Positions 39,546-50,056 are shown, numbered from the stretch's first letter. The stretch is DNA of 54,720 bases from Cryptobacterium sp. CAG:338 (GCA_000435475.1 FR896039.1:3637-58356), one strand, 5' to 3'. Notes: a model not told the origin generated them from the sequence alone. Made by a program: numbers and translations.

Positions 39546-39561
39546 TGTTTCACGTGAAACA
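39546..39561. promoter_or_regulatory. parS site 1
   Basis: Perfect TGTTTCACGTGAAACA. Confidence 0.95.
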
Positions 39562-39615: not shown

Positions 39616-39631
39616 TGTTTCACGTGAAACA
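39616..39631. promoter_or_regulatory. parS site 2
   Basis: Perfect TGTTTCACGTGAAACA. Confidence 0.95.
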
Positions 39632-39745: not shown

Positions 39746-39761
39746 TGTTTCACGTGAAACA
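39746..39761. promoter_or_regulatory. parS site 3
   Basis: Perfect TGTTTCACGTGAAACA. Confidence 0.95.
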
Positions 39762-40572: not shown

Positions 40573-40588
40573 TGTTTCACGTGAAACA
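40573..40588. promoter_or_regulatory. parS site 4 (jag-rsmG gap)
   Basis: Perfect TGTTTCACGTGAAACA. Confidence 0.95.
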
Positions 40589-42299: not shown

Positions 42300-42631
42300 G
42301 CCTTAACTTCGTATGAATCTATAACCTTTCTACATGCTGAAAGCAGTTTAGTATATTCAGCCTTTGTCGTCTTGCGGTTCGCAATAAAAAGAATAGTTAA
42401 ATTCTGCCAAGGACCACCAAGATCATGACATACTGCTCTCATCCTTCGTTTAGCGGTATTCCGCCAAACAGCATTTCCGTTTTTCTTACCTGCAATAAAA
42501 GCAACACGGCCACTAGGGCCGTGTTGGGTATCCCCTTGATAGACGATCATTGTCATATAAGGAGTTGCATGTCGTTTTCCGTGCGAGAACAAGTAGGAGA
42601 TCTCAGTGCTAGATTTAATAGTTCCTAACAC
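42296..42631 (-). CDS. rnpA: Ribonuclease P protein component
   Basis: [24 protein letters not shown]; position after rpmH. Confidence 0.92.
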
Positions 42632-42649
42632 GGTATCTCACAAGAAAAA

Positions 42650-42784
42650 CTAAACGGCAAGACGCTTACGGCCCTTAGCACGACGAGCAGAAAGAACAGC
42701 ACGACCACTCTTAGTAGCCATGCGTGCACGGAAGCCATGGGTCTTGGCGCGCTTATGGGTGTTTGGTTGATAGGTGCGCTTCAT
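42650..42784 (-). CDS. rpmH: 50S ribosomal protein L34
   Basis: [22 protein letters not shown]...[17 protein letters not shown]. Confidence 0.98.
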
Positions 42785-43189
42785 GTACGTTTTCCTTTCA
42801 GATTTACAGTAACTTTGAAATTGTACGATATGGAAATATACAGTCAAGAATAGAATTCCGAAAAGCGGTAATTATATCCATGTCACCACATAACATCCAC
42901 GTAATACACTACAAACGACGCTCTGGGTTTTTTCATGAAACTATAAAGCTATTATCTCGTCAGCTCAAATTGCCTTGTCGGCTCAAATCACCTCATTTTC
43001 TTTAGCTGCCTCGCTGTCATAAAAAAAATCAACAGGTCTTAATACTTGAACCCTTAAATAAGTCCAGGAATCCTAAATTTTTATCTGAAACCACATTCAT
43101 CCTCATTCTAGGAAAGAATAAATAAATTTGCCTTAGTTACACCTATTAATAAGCATAGGTTACCTACGTTTTTCCCTATCTTGGTTTAG

Positions 43190-43233
43190 TTATCCACATT
43201 TTTAAGGTATATCAATGTGGATAATGTGGATAA
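43190..43233. promoter_or_regulatory. Cluster of three perfect DnaA boxes
   Basis: TTATCCACA 43190-43198; TGTGGATAA 43216-43224 and 43225-43233. Confidence 0.9.
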
Positions 43234-43424
43234 CTTACCTGGTGTTTTTGTAAAACTAAATAACAAATCAACATTCCAATTTCGTTCAGGAAATTCACTT
43301 AAGAAGGAATCTATAAAAAACTATTACTCAAATCATTTAAAAAGTGGAAATATGCGTTTTAACTGGTGTTTTACTTTAAAGCATAGAGTGGATAGAAATG
43401 CAATACTTGAATTTACAAAACAAG

Positions 43425-43440
43425 GGTTTCACGTGAATCA
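43425..43440. promoter_or_regulatory. parS variant
   Basis: GGTTTCACGTGAATCA, 14/16 match. Confidence 0.65.
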
Positions 43441-43740
43441 CTATTGCTGAAGTGATATTTCTCCGTCCGATTTAACATCAGTTAACAAAAGAAAGGGAAA
43501 GGTTTTCCATATTCCTATTCCAGTTTTTCAATCTTTTTCACTTTCATTTTCAACGTTTTCCACATTTTCTTGAAAGAATATTGAAAACTCCGAAAACATA
43601 TAGGAAAAACTGAGTGAATAATTGAAAAAAACTGACTCGCTGACTAAAATATGAACGAAAAGATGCTCGGTTTGTTCATTTCGAGATATGAATAACTGAG
43701 CTATTTTCATCTTTCCTGGAAAACGAACCGAAAAAGTAGC

Positions 43741-44961
43741 ATGGCACCAGAAAACACTCCACATACTCATTCAGACCTTCAGGCAGAAGATCCAGAGATC
43801 TTAATTAATAATGCTCAAGTGGAGGAATCTTCACCTCAACTGCCACCTTATGCCTATACCGTTAATGGGGGAGTGCCGCCATTCCAAAATCAAAGTCCAT
43901 ACTATTCCCCACAAGCTTATATGAGCCCTTCAGTTCAACAAGCTTATTATCCCCCGCAAGGCATACCGCAGAACCCTGGATATCCTGCATATTACATAGG
44001 GAATCCAGGTGTTGAAATGAATGCCATGCCTACAGGAACTAACGGAATAAATACACCTAATACAACTGAGGTAAATCACCTCAACAATCAAACCCCAGGA
44101 AACAACACACCCCCTGCAGGTAAAGTGGATCAATCAGCTATTGCAACATCAGCAGCACAGTTTACTCAGACACCTCATACGGCCCCTATATCTCATGCCG
44201 CCTATTTACCTAATATCGCCCTAGACAATCAAACTCAAAACGAAGCGTTTGATTACTCTTATATTGCAACTCCAGCCCGTATAGCAATCTATGACGACTT
44301 AAAATCCGCTCCACGCGTAATCGAGATACAAGGTACTGCCACCCACGAATATATCGAGCGCATTGCGTCACTTACCTACAAGAACGCAAAAGAAGAAGGA
44401 GGGATTATTCCCTATACAGTCATCCGTGAAGTATCAGAAAATTTCATCCACGCACAATTTCAAGAAATTGTCGTATCGATCATGGATAAAGGAAATACTA
44501 TACGCTTCGCTGATCAGGGCCCAGGTATCGCTCATAAAGACTTAGTACAAGAACCAGGTTTCTCATCGGCTACTGAACCCATGAAAAGGTATATTCGTGG
44601 AGTTGGATCCGGCTTACCAATTGTTAAGGACTATCTCGAAACAACCCATGGATATATAGAAATCGAAGACAACATTAATAAAGGATCAGTTGTAACTATA
44701 AGTTTAGTAGCATCTCGAAGTATTCACGACGAGCAACCGCAGCTTGATATACCTGAATTAACCGAAAACGAACAACGTATACTCCAGGCTCTTCTTCCTG
44801 ATAAAGCCCTAGGAATTACCGAAATAAATAAAGTTACCGGTATTGCAGTAGCAAGTATCCATACCGCTTTATCTAAAATGGAAGAACAAAAGCTTGTAGA
44901 AAAGAACAATAAGAAAAGAAAACTGACTGTTTTTGGAGAACGAGTAGCACTTTCTCTCTAA
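43741..44961 (+). CDS. GHKL (HATPase_c) ATPase with C-terminal winged HTH; start uncertain
   Basis: N-box IREVSENFIHA, DQGPGI, GFSS, GVGSGLPIV, GSVVTI; wHTH LTENEQRILQAL...GITEINKVTGIAVASIHTALSKMEEQKLV. Confidence 0.85.
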   Translation: MAPENTPHTHSDLQAEDPEILINNAQVEESSPQLPPYAYTVNGGVPPFQNQSPYYSPQAYMSPSVQQAYYPPQGIPQNPGYPAYYIGNPGVEMNAMPTGTNGINTPNTTEVNHLNNQTPGNNTPPAGKVDQSAIATSAAQFTQTPHTAPISHAAYLPNIALDNQTQNEAFDYSYIATPARIAIYDDLKSAPRVIEIQGTATHEYIERIASLTYKNAKEEGGIIPYTVIREVSENFIHAQFQEIVVSIMDKGNTIRFADQGPGIAHKDLVQEPGFSSATEPMKRYIRGVGSGLPIVKDYLETTHGYIEIEDNINKGSVVTISLVASRSIHDEQPQLDIPELTENEQRILQALLPDKALGITEINKVTGIAVASIHTALSKMEEQKLVEKNNKKRKLTVFGERVALSL

Positions 44962-45042
44962 AGACCAAAGAACTCTATATAATTATTTCTTAAAGCACAG
45001 CAATGCTAATCGTAATGAGAGAACCCAAGGTATAACTAAACA

Positions 45043-46659
45043 ATGGATTTAACAGAACTCTGGACAAACCTTATACGTCAAATTAAGTCGTATCCCAATG
45101 TGAATGCATCACAAATAGATGCATTCTTCTCTCGTGTGCAACTTCAAGCAGCAAGCCAGGGTTTTGTAATGTTTACCTCGGATAATAGTTTTATTAAAGA
45201 CTGGATAGAAAAGCACTACATTAAAGATATCCAACAAGCCTTGCATGATATGTATGGAATGGATTTTATTGTTCAAATTGAAGTAGATCCAACCTCTACC
45301 CCAATTGCGCCACTTCCCGAAAGTGCCCCAACAGTAAGCCAGGAAGCTCCAGTCCACCATCAACCAACACCAGCACAACCAACGCCAACCCCTACACCAA
45401 GTGTCCAAAGGGAGGCACCCTTTATTAATCAAGGCGGATATAGTACTCCAGAAAAAGAGGTACTAAATTCCCTTCACGTACCAACGCGAGAGGACTCATC
45501 TTTTTACAGGGACAATAACCTCACCACCTACTCTTCCCCTAAAAACGAAGAATTGGATATCCGGCATAACTCATCAGATAAAACTGAACAAAGGGGAGTA
45601 GAAGGCCTCAATAGTCTCACCTTTGAGACTTTTGTTATGGGTGATTCTAATCGGATGGCTTATTCAATGGCTGTTGAAGTTGCCGAAAAACCAGGCTCTT
45701 CAGCACTTAATCCTTTATTTATTTACGGACGAAGTGGTGTGGGTAAAACCCATTTACTTTGCGCAATCAAAAACTACATCAATGAGCAATACGAAGACTT
45801 TAAAGTGATTTATATCGACTCAATGGAGTTAGTAAATCGCTATTCAGATGCTGCAATAGAGAAAAATGTTGATAAGCAAAGTTTTAAGAATTTTGAAAAT
45901 TTCTTCCAGCAAGCTGACGTATTACTTATCGATGATATCCAGGGATTACAAGGAAAGCCAGGAACTCTTGATACCTTATTTCGTATTTTCAACAAGATGA
46001 TCCCTAAAGGAAAACAGTTTGTTTTCTCTGCTGACCGTGCCCCAAAAAATATTGACTTAGATGAACGATATGTTTCCCGTTTTAACTCTGGCGCTACGAT
46101 CGATATCCAACCACCAGACGACGAAACCAAACGAAACATTATTAAAAGTTTCATTGCGGAATACAAAAATGAAGAAGAACTGCCATTCACTATTTCAGAT
46201 AGCATTCTCGACTATATCGTAGACAATTCAAGCTCAAACATCCGAGAATTAAAGAGCGCTATTACCAATGTTATCTTTGCGCTTAAAATGGACAAAGAGC
46301 ATGAACTATCAGAAAGTCGTGTCAAGGAACTTCTAGGAAATCATTTTATTGGTGGCGGAAAAAAGCGTATTACCATCGAGATGATTCAAGGTGCCGTAGA
46401 AGACTTCTATGGTGTTGCGCATAAGGATTTAATAGGAAAAAAGAAAGAACGCCGAATAGTACACCCAAGACAGGTTGCAATATTCCTTTGTCGAGAGCTT
46501 TCTGAAACTACCCTAAAAAACATTGGTAATGCATTTAACCGTGACCACACAACAGTTATGCATTCATGCGATTTAATTTCCAACCAACTCCAAGAAGACC
46601 GTAATCTTCGCGAAGAACTCGAGGCTATTCGGGAAAAGATTCGTATCCAACAGTACTAA
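45043..46659 (+). CDS. dnaA: Chromosomal replication initiator DnaA
   Basis: TFETFVMGDSN, NPLFIYGRSGVGKTHLL, LLIDDIQ, SNIREL, RDHTTV. Confidence 0.97.
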   Translation: MDLTELWTNLIRQIKSYPNVNASQIDAFFSRVQLQAASQGFVMFTSDNSFIKDWIEKHYIKDIQQALHDMYGMDFIVQIEVDPTSTPIAPLPESAPTVSQEAPVHHQPTPAQPTPTPTPSVQREAPFINQGGYSTPEKEVLNSLHVPTREDSSFYRDNNLTTYSSPKNEELDIRHNSSDKTEQRGVEGLNSLTFETFVMGDSNRMAYSMAVEVAEKPGSSALNPLFIYGRSGVGKTHLLCAIKNYINEQYEDFKVIYIDSMELVNRYSDAAIEKNVDKQSFKNFENFFQQADVLLIDDIQGLQGKPGTLDTLFRIFNKMIPKGKQFVFSADRAPKNIDLDERYVSRFNSGATIDIQPPDDETKRNIIKSFIAEYKNEEELPFTISDSILDYIVDNSSSNIRELKSAITNVIFALKMDKEHELSESRVKELLGNHFIGGGKKRITIEMIQGAVEDFYGVAHKDLIGKKKERRIVHPRQVAIFLCRELSETTLKNIGNAFNRDHTTVMHSCDLISNQLQEDRNLREELEAIREKIRIQQY

Positions 46660-46719
46660 ATGCAGGAATTTATACCAAGTAAGAACTACTAGTAATCCTT
46701 GTTTTAACCCTTATAAAGA

Positions 46720-46920
46720 CGTGCATAAATACCGTAAAGTACTGGGGATAACTAGCAATTAATGTTAATAAGGTTTTCCCCACCTTTTCCACGGGGAAAA
46801 CAAGAGGGATAATCCACATGATTTATACCCCATCTTTTATTAATACTGACCAGGTAAAAAAGAAGTTATCAACAAATCAACGCTGCTTATTACTTCTATG
46901 ATTAGTATTTAATTAAGAAG
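46720..46920. other. oriC: DnaA boxes and DNA unwinding element
   Basis: TGGGGATAA 46743, TAATCCACA 46810, TTATCAACA 46866 plus AAATCAACG, CTGCT spacer, trios TAT TAC TTC TAT GAT TAG TAT (46888-46908), then AT-rich tract. Confidence 0.85.
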
Positions 46921-47045
46921 AGTAAGAAGAAAAAATAAAGGGGAAATCCAAAAGAGTAAATCCTGAATTGATGGAAGGTTAAAACATCAAGAACGGGTAT
47001 CATAAATTAACGCAACAGTTCTAAAGAGGTATCAGAGGAGCTTTA

Positions 47046-48143
47046 ATGAAATTCAGTATCAATCAATCAGAACTTCAAAATGCCCTATCAGTATGCGTAA
47101 AAGGTTCTTCTACTCGCTCAACGCTTTCAATCCTTGCTGGAGTTTATCTCAAAGCAGAAGAAGGAAGCTTGACACTGCAAACAACCAACTTAGAACTATC
47201 TATTAAAGTAACCTGTCCCGCCTTGGTGGAAGAGCAAGGTGAATCAGTTGTACCTGCAAAGCTCTTTTTGGATATCGTGAAAAACTTGCCAGATATGGCT
47301 GTAAGAATCGAATCAGACGATGCAACAGCTTCAGTCTTCTGTGATACAATCACTTTTTCACTTAAAGCGCTTAATCCTCTTGATTTTCCTGCATTTCCAG
47401 AGGTAGAAGCTGAACAGGAAGCACAATTTCCTTTCTCGGCATTTTCAACCATGGTAAAGAGGACCGCAAAAGTAGTTTCTCATGATGAAACTCGTGCGGT
47501 GCTAACAGGCGTGTTGGTTTCCTGTGTAGGAAATGAACTCAAAATGGTTGCAACTGACTCGTATCGTTTAGCGGTGAGTGAAACTCAACTTAGTCAACCT
47601 TGTCCAGAAGAATTTGAAGCAGTAATTGCAGGTTCATTTTTGAACGATATTGCCTCATTACCTCAGTCAGATCAGCCTATTACTTTAGCTTTAAGCGAGA
47701 ATCAGATAATTGTCTCCTATCAAGACACGACTTTTATTAATCGTCGAATTGAAGGTGCTTTCCCTAATTACAAACAATTAATCGCAGATGGATTCTCTAC
47801 CCGAGTTACTTTATCTACTCATGCGCTTACCGATGCGGTTCGTCGAGTCTCTCTTTTAAGTAACAAAGTTTCTCCTGTGCAGATAAAAGTTGATGCCGAA
47901 TCCGGTGTTATGACTTTAGTTACAAATTCTCAAGATATTGGTAATGCACAGGAGAATTTGATTTGTGAAATTGAGGGAGAATCAGTAGATATAGCCTTTA
48001 ATTACTCTTTCTTGTTGGATGGCTTGAATTCTATAACTACTGATGCAGTTCATTTGGATCTTTTTGGCTCTATGAAACCAGGAATTCTTCGCGCTACAGA
48101 AGGAGAAAATTTCCTTTACTTGATTATGCCTGTGCGTGTATAG
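47046..48143 (+). CDS. dnaN: DNA polymerase III beta clamp
   Basis: MKFSINQSEL, VATDSYRL, GAFPNYKQLI, LIMPVR. Confidence 0.97.
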   Translation: MKFSINQSELQNALSVCVKGSSTRSTLSILAGVYLKAEEGSLTLQTTNLELSIKVTCPALVEEQGESVVPAKLFLDIVKNLPDMAVRIESDDATASVFCDTITFSLKALNPLDFPAFPEVEAEQEAQFPFSAFSTMVKRTAKVVSHDETRAVLTGVLVSCVGNELKMVATDSYRLAVSETQLSQPCPEEFEAVIAGSFLNDIASLPQSDQPITLALSENQIIVSYQDTTFINRRIEGAFPNYKQLIADGFSTRVTLSTHALTDAVRRVSLLSNKVSPVQIKVDAESGVMTLVTNSQDIGNAQENLICEIEGESVDIAFNYSFLLDGLNSITTDAVHLDLFGSMKPGILRATEGENFLYLIMPVRV

Positions 48144-48171: not shown

Positions 48172-49308
48172 ATGGGGCTTATCTTAAGCGCGATAGATTG
48201 CAATAATTTTCGTTCGTATCATCAGTTAAAGCTTGATGAAATTGGAATGCTTACGTTAATTATTGGTCCTAATGCTACAGGTAAAACAAATCTCTTAGAA
48301 GGAATTCAGTACACTACAGCAGCTGCTTCATTCCGTCATCCAACTCTTTTACATCTGATTCATAGTGGAGAGAAAAATAGCTGGTTTAAAAGTGTGTTTG
48401 AGGGAGACGGCCGTCATTTAGAGGTCGAGCTTCGCTGTAGCTTAGACCATAAAGATTTTTATCTTAATGGGAAAAAGAAGCAGGCTCATAAAATTCGTGG
48501 TATTTTGCCCTCAGTTTTGTTTTGTCCTGATGATTTAAATCTTATTAAGGGCTCGCAAAGTGTTAAACGTACACAGCTTGATCTACTTGGATCGCAGATT
48601 TCATCTGGTTATAACGCGGTTCGGAAAGACTACGAAAAGATATTACGTCAAAAGAATAGCTGCCTTAAGCAGGAGATGCCGCACGAATACCTTTCAAGTA
48701 TTAACGAGGTACTAGCATCAATTGGCGCACAGCTTTACCATTTACGTTCCCAGTTGGTAACATCGTTAATTCCTTATATCCAAGACTACTATTATGAATT
48801 ATCACTTGGTCGTGAGGAGGTTTCGATAAGGTATATACCTTCCTGGGAACGAGCGGAAGCTAATCCGGAAGAGTACCAAGAAAACGCCTGGGTAGATCGT
48901 CATACTGCTCAAGAATTACTTTTACAGAAAATGGAAAACGATTATCCGAAAGAGCATGAGCGCCATATGTCGCTCTATGGTCCGCAAATAGATAGGATAG
49001 AGTTTTATTTAGATAAGAGAAACGCCTCATCTTTCGCTTCCCAAGGACAGCAACGTTCACTGGTTTTGAGTTATAAAATGGCTGAAGTAGCTTTAATTAA
49101 GGAGAAATTAGGACAAAATCCTCTTCTCCTTCTTGATGATGTTATGAGTGAACTCGATAATGATCGCAGATCGGCACTTTTTTCACTTTTATCGGAGGGA
49201 ATTCAGACTTTTATTACAGCTACAAATTCCGAAATGTTTGACGAGAGTTTAAAAAAACAGGCGCGGATTGTGGAACTTGGATTTGATGGAGTGGTTTCTT
49301 ATGGTTGA
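48172..49308 (+). CDS. recF: DNA replication and repair protein RecF
   Basis: NFRSY, GPNATGKTN, ASQGQQRS, LLLDDVMSELD. Confidence 0.96.
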   Translation: MGLILSAIDCNNFRSYHQLKLDEIGMLTLIIGPNATGKTNLLEGIQYTTAAASFRHPTLLHLIHSGEKNSWFKSVFEGDGRHLEVELRCSLDHKDFYLNGKKKQAHKIRGILPSVLFCPDDLNLIKGSQSVKRTQLDLLGSQISSGYNAVRKDYEKILRQKNSCLKQEMPHEYLSSINEVLASIGAQLYHLRSQLVTSLIPYIQDYYYELSLGREEVSIRYIPSWERAEANPEEYQENAWVDRHTAQELLLQKMENDYPKEHERHMSLYGPQIDRIEFYLDKRNASSFASQGQQRSLVLSYKMAEVALIKEKLGQNPLLLLDDVMSELDNDRRSALFSLLSEGIQTFITATNSEMFDESLKKQARIVELGFDGVVSYG

Positions 49309-50056
49309 TCATCCTGAATGGGCTTCTTCTCGTGATCCGCGTCATTTAGCTGATATTTACAACGAACGAACTAATTCATTAAAACCGGTTTCGAATTCTT
49401 TCAATGCGTTTTATCATTCCTTGCCTGAAAAGGTTAGGGAGAAAGTTTTAGTAAACCGAAGAATACAAAAAATTCATCAGCAATTTTCTCAAGTTGTTGA
49501 TCCTTATATTTTGGATCACACGAATTCAGTTTATCTACTTCGTCACAAGGATCCTTTAGGGCAATCTAATAAGAACGGCAAAGAAAAAAATACCTATTCA
49601 GATCAAAATTCAACTGATTCATCAAGTTCGACAACCGTTTCGAATAGCGGAATATATAACGCTGATAAGAAAGTGCTCGGCAATCCCAACAAGTCACTTT
49701 CTAATAAGCCGCCTTATGGAGTTCAAGAGATATTTGATCTTGTAGTGTATGTTGATAATTCATTGGTAGCGGCGGAGCTCAATGCTCGGAGAGAATTGAT
49801 TCGTCTAAAATATCGCGAGCAATTTAAAGTGGTAATCGATATATTTGAAATACGTATTTCTCGCGGTGTCTATAAAGATAAATATCCTTTTAGGGAACTG
49901 AGAGATCATAATAAGGAATACAGAACAGCTCACGCACTCACTCAAGAAGAATTAAATGAAATAGACGAACTTTTAAAAGATATTCCTGAGGGAAAATTGC
50001 GAGCGTCGTTTAAAAAAGCAATTAAGGCCCAAAAACAAAATAGTGATAAAAAATAA
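49301..50056 (+). CDS. DciA/DUF721-like protein with low-complexity insertion
   Basis: recF-gyrB position typical of actinobacterial dciA; LVVYVDNSLVAAEL...IRLKY...FEIRIS resembles the DUF721 core. Confidence 0.6.
   Translation: MVDHPEWASSRDPRHLADIYNERTNSLKPVSNSFNAFYHSLPEKVREKVLVNRRIQKIHQQFSQVVDPYILDHTNSVYLLRHKDPLGQSNKNGKEKNTYSDQNSTDSSSSTTVSNSGIYNADKKVLGNPNKSLSNKPPYGVQEIFDLVVYVDNSLVAAELNARRELIRLKYREQFKVVIDIFEIRISRGVYKDKYPFRELRDHNKEYRTAHALTQEELNEIDELLKDIPEGKLRASFKKAIKAQKQNSDKK

Follow-up and report, generated by a model that had tools for sequence, protein, structure and literature searches.

A GHKL-winged-helix gene preceding dnaA in Coriobacteriia: a candidate player in the start of chromosome replication

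The timing of replication initiation outside the model Proteobacteria and Firmicutes is largely unknown, and to our knowledge every well-studied lineage uses its own regulators of DnaA. The question of what such a regulator might be is raised by a stretch of DNA from Cryptobacterium sp. CAG:338 (GCA_000435475.1 FR896039.1:3637-58356), here called the window, which is 54,720 nt in length and from whose start all coordinates are counted. It contains, between rpmH and dnaA, a gene for a 406 aa protein in which a GHKL ATP-binding domain is followed by a winged helix-turn-helix (wHTH). What would such a protein do at the head of dnaA? A preliminary description of the DNA had reported that the open reading frame (ORF) has the same orientation as dnaA and stops 81 nt short of it, and had proposed that it encodes a candidate lineage-specific regulator of initiation. 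The arrangement is as reported (Table 1); 'lineage-specific' was too narrow a term, because the gene is found class-wide and in several other classes of the phylum. We regard the GHKL-wHTH gene as a strong candidate for a new player in the start of chromosome replication. The candidate is directly testable, since the gene is conserved like dnaA and physically locked to it across several classes, and its product combines an intact ATP site with a domain for binding DNA.

Linkage to dnaA and distribution

Linkage was followed in 100 loci, being the 80 best from Coriobacteriia and 20 from other classes, which were probed with the proteins of the window itself (tblastn; rpmH and dnaN were among the probes). 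The gene lies directly upstream of dnaA and is co-oriented with it in 95 of the loci, so that conservation of its position across Coriobacteriia, chosen beforehand as a check, is strongly borne out. Two of the remaining five end short of dnaA, and in the other three the genes are arranged otherwise, still adjacent. In the other classes rpmH is beside the gene in 20/20 loci, and dnaA-dnaN come next in all 19 that reach that far. Of the genomes of relatives that gave a strong match, 32 of 33 likewise have the gene next to dnaA, upstream of it and co-oriented. Where the genome is complete, the gene is found right at one end or the other of the chromosome record, beside the conventional dnaA start.

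The pair has also been rearranged as a unit. In 16 loci dnaN (minus strand) lies upstream of the gene and rpmH (plus strand) downstream of dnaA, and therefore the segment comprising the gene and dnaA has been inverted as a single block, unsplit. The spacer between the two genes has a median length of 81 nt (range 0-305, n = 73), four being of 0-4 nt, and that of the window has neither a terminator-like hairpin nor a plus-strand promoter-like site. The resistance of the block to rearrangement, taken together with its anatomy, argues for production of the protein along with DnaA and for a site of action common to the two.

The distribution was explored using the conserved 237-residue part of the protein as query. 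This returned 2159 proteins at E ≤ 0.001, and the best 120 of the 2159 are 67-100% identical to the query with 99-100% coverage and have lengths of 252-508 aa. When 1.84 billion cluster representatives were searched exhaustively, 260 matched at E ≤ 1e-30. Of the other genomes of the genus, 22 of 24 have a strong match, as do 11 of 16 genomes from other families of the order, the other five giving only weak matches to unrelated HATPase proteins. Within the class 139/151 genomes match (137/142 of high quality), with one strong match per genome except in one where a second match overlaps the first; the gene is thus single copy. In the phylum, other classes included, the numbers are 72/201 and, for high-quality genomes, 72/192. 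By family there is a sharp division: some have the gene in 14/14, 13/13, 7/8 and 4/4 of their genomes, whereas the counts for others are 0/14, 0/13, 0/14 and 0/10. Among the cultured carriers are Slackia, Gordonibacter, Eggerthella, Adlercreutzia, Raoultibacter and Rubneribacter, and abundant Eggerthellaceae of the human gut are among the organisms concerned. The label Eggerthella sp. CAG:1427 is attached to one close homologue. Several bins labelled Oscillibacter, Alloprevotella, Bacteroidaceae, Methanomethylophilaceae and Agathobacter carry a locus of Coriobacteriia type (L024, L025, L035, L041, L080, L088 and L097), and are likely to be mislabelled or chimeric.

In a rough comparison of best high-scoring segment pairs, the identity of the GHKL-wHTH core exceeds that of DnaA in 81 of 97 loci, which suggests that the core is at least as well conserved as DnaA. 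The homologues carry little by way of names. Seventeen cluster representatives are called either 'putative uncharacterized protein' or 'hypothetical protein', and the automatic names in the ESM Atlas, where the commonest phylum is Actinomycetota, are of the kind 'ATP-binding protein'.

Architecture of the protein

The protein comprises an N-terminal extension, a GHKL domain preceded by a β-hairpin, and a C-terminal wHTH. As first described, the extension is rich in proline (14.8%), asparagine (11.2%), glutamine (9.5%) and tyrosine (6.5%) in residues 1-169, and just 7.7% of these residues are charged. It is a trait of this genus. The typical family member has 240-290 aa with an N-terminus of only 3-60 residues in most relatives, and other genera enlarge the linker between the domains instead. 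Within an otherwise variable N-terminus the motif P-P-Y-A-x-T-V/M/I-N-G-G (codons ~44-54, window 43870-43900) recurs in several relatives from the genus, and may be a short linear interaction motif.

Residues 225-322 match Pfam HATPase_c (PF02518) with E 5.9e-10 and 40 bits (cut-off 26.4 bits), and the same family is matched by 40/40 aligned members. The wHTH is of TrmB type (residues 339-394, E 6.7e-5), its 23.1 bits falling just under the cut-off of 25.6 bits. Among the 40 members the Pfam matches of this domain are to HTH_IclR (24/40), TrmB (19/40), MarR_2 (16/40) and MarR (12/40). No HisKA or DHp family was matched at E ≤ 1 in the Pfam search of the 406 aa protein.

The ATP site is intact. 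In the 40-member alignment (residue number = alignment position + 169) the N box comprises E230, E233, N234, H237 and A238, of which N234 is invariant and E230 nearly so, the others being invariant or close to it. The numbered residues of the G1 box (D258-x-G260-P-G262) and the G2 box (G287-x-G289-x-G291) are invariant, and G315 and T319 in the G3 region are invariant or nearly so. The N-terminal hairpin, A-R-I-A-x-Y-D-D...A-P-R, is specific to the family and is conserved as strongly as the residues of the ATP site. The ATP-site motifs are visibly retained in 20 proteins from other classes.

An AlphaFold model of residues 170-406 is confident, with a pLDDT of 92.0 and a pTM of 0.69. From the N-terminus the chain forms the β-hairpin and then the α/β sandwich of the GHKL domain, passes after about residue 324 into a linker of low confidence, and ends as a three-helix wHTH with its wing. 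The sequence matches of the family profile in the PDB are only distant, the closest being the catalytic and ATP-binding (CA) domain of KinB (E 7.8e-7), with MutL at 4.5e-4 and SpoIIAB (1l0o and 1til) at 0.067-0.083. The leading Foldseek matches of the model are histidine-kinase CA domains (E 7e-7 to 1e-5), together with DIP2311 of Corynebacterium diphtheriae (PDB 3lmm). The Pfam matches, the alignment, the model and the fold searches all agree with the earlier assignment of an intact Bergerat fold with no DHp domain and a C-terminal wHTH. Longer proteins (712-2030 aa) included no fused form at E ≤ 1e-10, in a search that we rate as weak evidence. Prediction of a complex of DnaA with the GHKL-wHTH core gave no answer either way (score 0.00, mark 0.32).

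The upstream region and the origin neighbourhood

The region between rpmH and the GHKL-wHTH gene contains the three perfect DnaA boxes, the parS variant and the phased array that the preliminary description had placed there. The boxes, of sequence TTATCCACA, are the sole perfect ones in the window, and the last two abut. No box with one mismatch or fewer is present in the 81 nt spacer of the window, so that the boxes do lie upstream of the gene and not directly upstream of dnaA. Over the whole window there are 21 matches to the box with up to one mismatch, compared with 12.2 ± 3.2 in shuffled sequence.

Alignment of the leaders of four species of the genus reveals conserved islands amid diverged sequence. 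These are the box triplet, the two copies of the 12-mer ACCTGGTGTTTT, a block at 43397-43413, the T-tract array with TTTTCCACA, and the promoter-like TTGAAA-17-TAAAAT. The triplet block is identical save for one base in the window and in loci L019, L020 and L021. The parS-like palindrome GGTTTCACGTGAATCA, which has two mismatches to the consensus, is conserved in L019 and not in L020 or L021. Both promoter-like hexamers are retained in L019 and L020, with a different spacer in the latter. In the repeat analysis the array appears as a 20 nt unit recurring at 22 nt. An Rfam search of 42500-47200 gave only two matches of chance level (E 0.54 and 1), and thus no known RNA element in the leader. 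Among sequencing runs, none recorded as RNA contains this DNA; one run covers it entirely, as contigs from a strain 90-99% alike, and another, whose designation as RNA is a guess, gave two contigs of 151 nt (43592-43743 and 43809-43959).

The pair of 12-mers is conserved in the four species, and the 12-mer is a candidate protein-binding site. Allowing one mismatch, it has 20 sites in the genome compared with seven for the reversed control; it is not unique to the origin, and is taken as a lead rather than as an operator.

Motifs of the array are shared widely. Among 40 divergent representatives, the 8-mers that recur in most leaders are TTTTCCAC (30/40), GTTTTCCA (26) and TTTTCAAC (25), where no 8-mer exceeded 12 in 200 shuffles, and the units of the array contain these widely shared 8-mers. 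The density of TTTTC[CA]AC is 5.44 per kb upstream of the gene, compared with 0.41 per kb in coding sequence and, on the far side of dnaA, 1.76; neighbours on the same strand are most often 9 nt apart (11 cases). The relaxed consensus of the DnaA box is TTWTNCACA. The TTTTCCACA-type motif had been entertained as the target of the wHTH; this was set aside, as DnaA is the simpler reader of a motif that fits the relaxed box and often occurs as abutting 9-mers. We therefore read motifs of the TTTTC[CA]AC and TTTTCCACA type as the probable DnaA boxes of this lineage. So read, the main box cluster of these genomes precedes the GHKL-wHTH gene, and would move with it in the inverted loci.

Of 77 loci, 26 have perfect TT[AG]TCCACA upstream of the gene, 12 have it downstream of dnaA and none has it in the spacer. 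Box-like motifs are mainly upstream of the GHKL-wHTH gene in most loci from Coriobacteriia. Four loci from one family of another class (L100, L101, L102 and L104) have 15-18 perfect boxes between dnaA and dnaN, together with 3-4 upstream of the GHKL-wHTH gene. It seems that the main cluster lies on different sides in different classes, having moved from one to the other.

The genes to the left of the locus, parB, parA, rsmG, jag, yidC, yidD, rnpA and rpmH, are all on the minus strand. Those to the right of dnaA, dnaN, recF, an ORF of 262 aa, gyrB and gyrA, are on the plus strand. This is the classical origin neighbourhood, and the cumulative GC skew has its minimum at 46-48 kb of the window. 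A bipartite origin is probable, with its left part in the intergenic region before the GHKL-wHTH gene, which is probably also the control region of the operon, and its right part between dnaA and dnaN.

Three further observations concern the neighbourhood. Matches to parS number eight in the window against 0.25 expected. Four copies are perfect (TGTTTCACGTGAAACA at 39546-39561, 39616-39631, 39746-39761 and 40573-40588, from the 5′ end of parA to rsmG/jag), and besides the palindrome in the leader there are two copies with one mismatch (30027 and 54704) and another with two (5010). The 262 aa ORF (49268-50056, plus strand) in the slot between recF and gyrB has a sub-threshold match to DciA (PF05258, E 0.0011, residues 158-191) preceded by a long N-terminal part of low complexity, and is probably a divergent form of this helicase loader. 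In DnaA itself, residues ~85-190 (window 45300-45610) form a long domain-II linker rich in proline, threonine and glutamine, whose composition resembles that of the N-terminus of the GHKL-wHTH protein.

Table 1. Positions of the features of the rpmH-dnaN region in the window
Feature	Position	Strand	Remarks
rpmH (ribosomal protein L34)	42650..42784	-	ORF list; divergent from the GHKL-wHTH gene; bounds the origin-side intergenic region on the left
rpmH-GHKL intergenic region, ~890 nt	42848..43740		DnaA-box cluster, conserved blocks, promoter-like site
Perfect DnaA boxes TTATCCACA (three)	43190-43198, 43216-43224, 43225-43233	+, -, -	
Conserved 12-mer ACCTGGTGTTTT, copy 1	43237..43248	+	right after the DnaA boxes
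Conserved 12-mer, copy 2 (AACTGGTGTTTT)	43361..43372	+	124 nt downstream of copy 1
parS-like palindrome GGTTTCACGTGAATCA	43425..43440	+	
Array of TTTTC(C/A)A-type units	43503..43573	+	~11 nt phasing; ends in one-mismatch DnaA box TTTTCCACA (43556-43564)
Promoter-like TTGAAA-17-TAAAAT	43622..43650	+	~90 nt before the start codon; 10/12 consensus match only
GHKL-wHTH gene, 406 aa	43741..44961	+	ORF list
N-terminal extension, codons 1-169	43741..44247	+	low-complexity, P/N/Q/Y/T-rich; length varies among relatives
β-hairpin (ARIAIYDD...APR) and GHKL/Bergerat ATP-binding domain, codons 170-324	44248..44712	+	hairpin family-specific
MarR/TrmB-like wHTH, codons 336-406 and stop	44746..44961	+	K/R-rich wing (NKKRKLT)
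Spacer between GHKL-wHTH gene and dnaA, 81 nt	44962..45042	+	between the two ORFs
dnaA, 538 aa	45043..46659	+	ORF list; Pfam DnaA_N, Bac_DnaA, Bac_DnaA_C
dnaA-dnaN intergenic region	46660..47045		one-mismatch DnaA boxes at 46743 (-), 46810 (+), 46866 (+)
dnaN	47046..48143	+	ORF list

Possible roles and comparison with known systems

The explanation that we favour, and to which we give about an even chance, is that the protein is an ATP-gated DNA-binding factor that modulates the assembly of DnaA on the upstream box cluster, the transcription of the operon, or both. The gene would be the first cistron of a module comprising DnaA-box cluster, GHKL-wHTH gene and dnaA, and its product would work with DnaA at the origin region. 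The transcript would begin at a promoter downstream of the box cluster, so that DnaA would control the expression of both proteins jointly. The wHTH would anchor the protein to sites within the same upstream region, and the protein, like others with a GHKL domain, might change in self-association or conformation when this domain binds ATP. DnaA assembly on the cluster, or operon transcription, or both, could be tuned by such a change, and initiation would thereby be tied to nucleotide status. This would be a new kind of initiation control, built on a GHKL ATPase instead of an AAA+ or ParA-type ATPase. Should the protein prove to do no more than regulate transcription of the dnaA operon, it would still define the control of DnaA supply for a whole class. 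For genome annotation in these lineages, the gene marks the origin module.

A number of observations weigh against this explanation. Co-transcription is not obligatory, the gene being divergent from dnaA in loci L043 and L061 and in genome G022, and L093 having an inversion of dnaA alone. Close to the origin, a conserved order of genes may persist for causes other than common function. The gene is dispensable in some lineages, since 5/16 of the genomes from other families of the order have no strong match, and in family f16 it was found in just 2/10 genomes, many of the eight without it being incomplete. In G027, a genome of the same order that is 98% complete, rnpA and rpmH face dnaA with no gene between, at a distance of ~750 nt from dnaA to the rpmH/rnpA side (locus L119, G027:C77, 5292-6045); such a lineage offers a natural 'knock-out' with which others can be compared. 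The fit of the TTTTCCACA-type motif to the relaxed DnaA box means that no site is identified for the GHKL-wHTH protein. Lastly, the perfect boxes of the window precede the promoter-like site by ~400 nt, a long distance if autorepression were simple.

A more ambitious form of the favoured explanation makes the protein a hitherto unrecognized core component of replication initiation in Coriobacteriia and in other classes of Actinomycetota outside the Actinomycetes. Here a GHKL ATP-switch made from the DnaA message would dock by its wHTH on its own upstream box cluster, and its ATP-driven dimerization would load, restrain or remodel the DnaA oligomer. We hold this only tentatively and think it doubtful. 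If true, the origin would have another nucleotide switch in addition to DnaA-ATP, through which initiation would be coupled to the energy state.

Three other roles were weighed. The protein could be an origin-proximal factor of chromosome organization or segregation, acting as an ATP-dependent dimerizing DNA clamp or bridge in the manner of the N-gates of MutL, MORC or GyrB; it would then give structure to the origin region and leave initiation uncontrolled by it. Its N box (I-R-E230-V-S-E-N234-F-I-H-A) does contain motif I of the GHL ATPases (MutL, GyrB, Hsp90 and MORC), E-x-x-x-N-x-x-x-A; MutL is also among the sequence matches, GHKL ATPases commonly dimerize upon binding ATP, and the gene is near parAB and the parS sites. 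The GHL ATPases differ, however, in having a transducer of the ribosomal S5 domain-2 fold after the GHKL domain, which is absent from the model and from the Pfam matches. Moreover a clamp leaves unexplained why the inversion-resistant linkage is to dnaA and not to parAB, and we consider this role unlikely.

Distinctly unlikely, in our estimation, is a GHKL kinase or partner-switching factor akin to RsbW or SpoIIAB, that would phosphorylate or sequester DnaA or another initiation protein, the wHTH serving only to localize it. The stand-alone GHKL domain of ~150 residues without DHp is common to these anti-sigma serine kinases and to our protein, the G1/F/G2 lid is like that of histidine kinases, there is the weak profile match to SpoIIAB, and tight linkage to dnaA fits a relationship between proteins. 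Yet the similarity is marginal, SpoIIAB being a poorer match than histidine-kinase CA domains, MutL or DIP2311, and the Pfam search of the 406 aa protein gave no HATPase_c_2 match at E ≤ 1. Anti-sigma kinases are not known to have a DNA-binding domain, a conserved acceptor residue was not identified in the family, and no sigma factor or STAS partner was found among the neighbours in the window and the probed loci. The analogy to RsbW and RsbT drawn in the preliminary description thus lacks specific support, given the wHTH and the absence of a partner-switching context. An ordinary transcription factor sensing a ligand or ATP, with a regulon unrelated to replication and kept in place by operon history or the gene-dosage advantage of the origin, is very unlikely: it would accord with the MarR/TrmB-like wHTH, with the annotation of the DIP2311 group as predicted transcriptional regulators and with loss of the gene in some lineages, but not with a position and orientation kept across several classes and through inversions, nor with a single copy conserved at least as well as DnaA, which is unusual for a hitch-hiking regulator.

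Returning to the ATP-gated DNA-binding factor, how does it stand beside systems that are known? The CA domains of histidine kinases (KinB 3d36, EnvZ chimera 4kp4, CpxA 4biw and HK853 3dge) have a HATPase_c domain with N, G1, F-like and G2 boxes in common with it. They differ in that the GHKL-wHTH protein has no DHp/HisKA domain, no helix with a phospho-acceptor histidine and no sensor domain, and has a fused wHTH instead. A two-component histidine kinase was ruled out, as the model has a β-hairpin and one helix before the N box and no helical hairpin, with low-complexity sequence further upstream. No response regulator is adjacent, the neighbours being rpmH and dnaA here and in the 95 co-oriented loci. 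The domain, sequence and fold comparisons thus set the protein apart from histidine kinases, RsbW-type kinases and transducer-bearing GHL ATPases alike.

In structure, the GHKL part together with the β-hairpin at its N-terminus is matched best by DIP2311. It ranks first in an unbiased VIA-align search (Z 12.4), and a second look at residues 1-155 of the model gave Z 14.0 with a root-mean-square deviation (rmsd) of 3.0 over 150 residues (chain 226-409). The Foldseek alignments, of 256-290 columns, extend into the wHTH, so that a GHKL-like domain followed by a wHTH is an order common to both. The identity is just 13%, and in Pfam the AlbA_2 (Schlafen-like) domain of DIP2311 has no match in our protein; HATPase_c_4 is matched by 0/40 family members at E ≤ 0.01. 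We take DIP2311 to be a structural-genomics protein of COG2865 type (AlbA_2/Schlafen-like, HATPase_c_4 and wHTH), the function of which is unknown, and for this reason the match explains little. By these comparisons the GHKL-wHTH protein is at most a distant, AlbA_2-less cousin of this uncharacterized group.

The C-terminal 67-74 residues superpose on many MarR/TrmB-type regulators, among them BpsR (6pco), MarR (3vod) and HpaR (7el2), with Z 12-13.6 and rmsd 1.2-3.7. The aligned part is the wHTH core only (65-82 residues), and nothing follows the wHTH in our protein. It differs from these regulators in having an ATPase domain, to which a linker of variable kind joins the wHTH.

The preliminary description knew of no characterized equivalent, and the comparisons of domains, structures and literature gave none. 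No publication on the family was found, with subscription journals and supplements being outside the coverage of the search, and those passages of PMC4255298 that deal with dnaA and oriC do not mention it.

The layout of the locus is similar to that of the bipartite oriC of Bacillus type, with a box cluster upstream of the dnaA operon and further boxes between dnaA and dnaN. Known regulators of origins or of DnaA include YabA, SirA, Soj, Hda, DiaA, HobA, Spo0A, CtrA, MtrA and AdpA. The families of YabA, SirA, Hda, DiaA, HobA and Soj/ParA are not among the Pfam or NCBIfam matches of the protein. We know of no such regulator that is a GHKL protein, nor of one that is the leading gene of the dnaA operon. 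What the GHKL-wHTH protein has in common with all of these regulators is its probable site of action.

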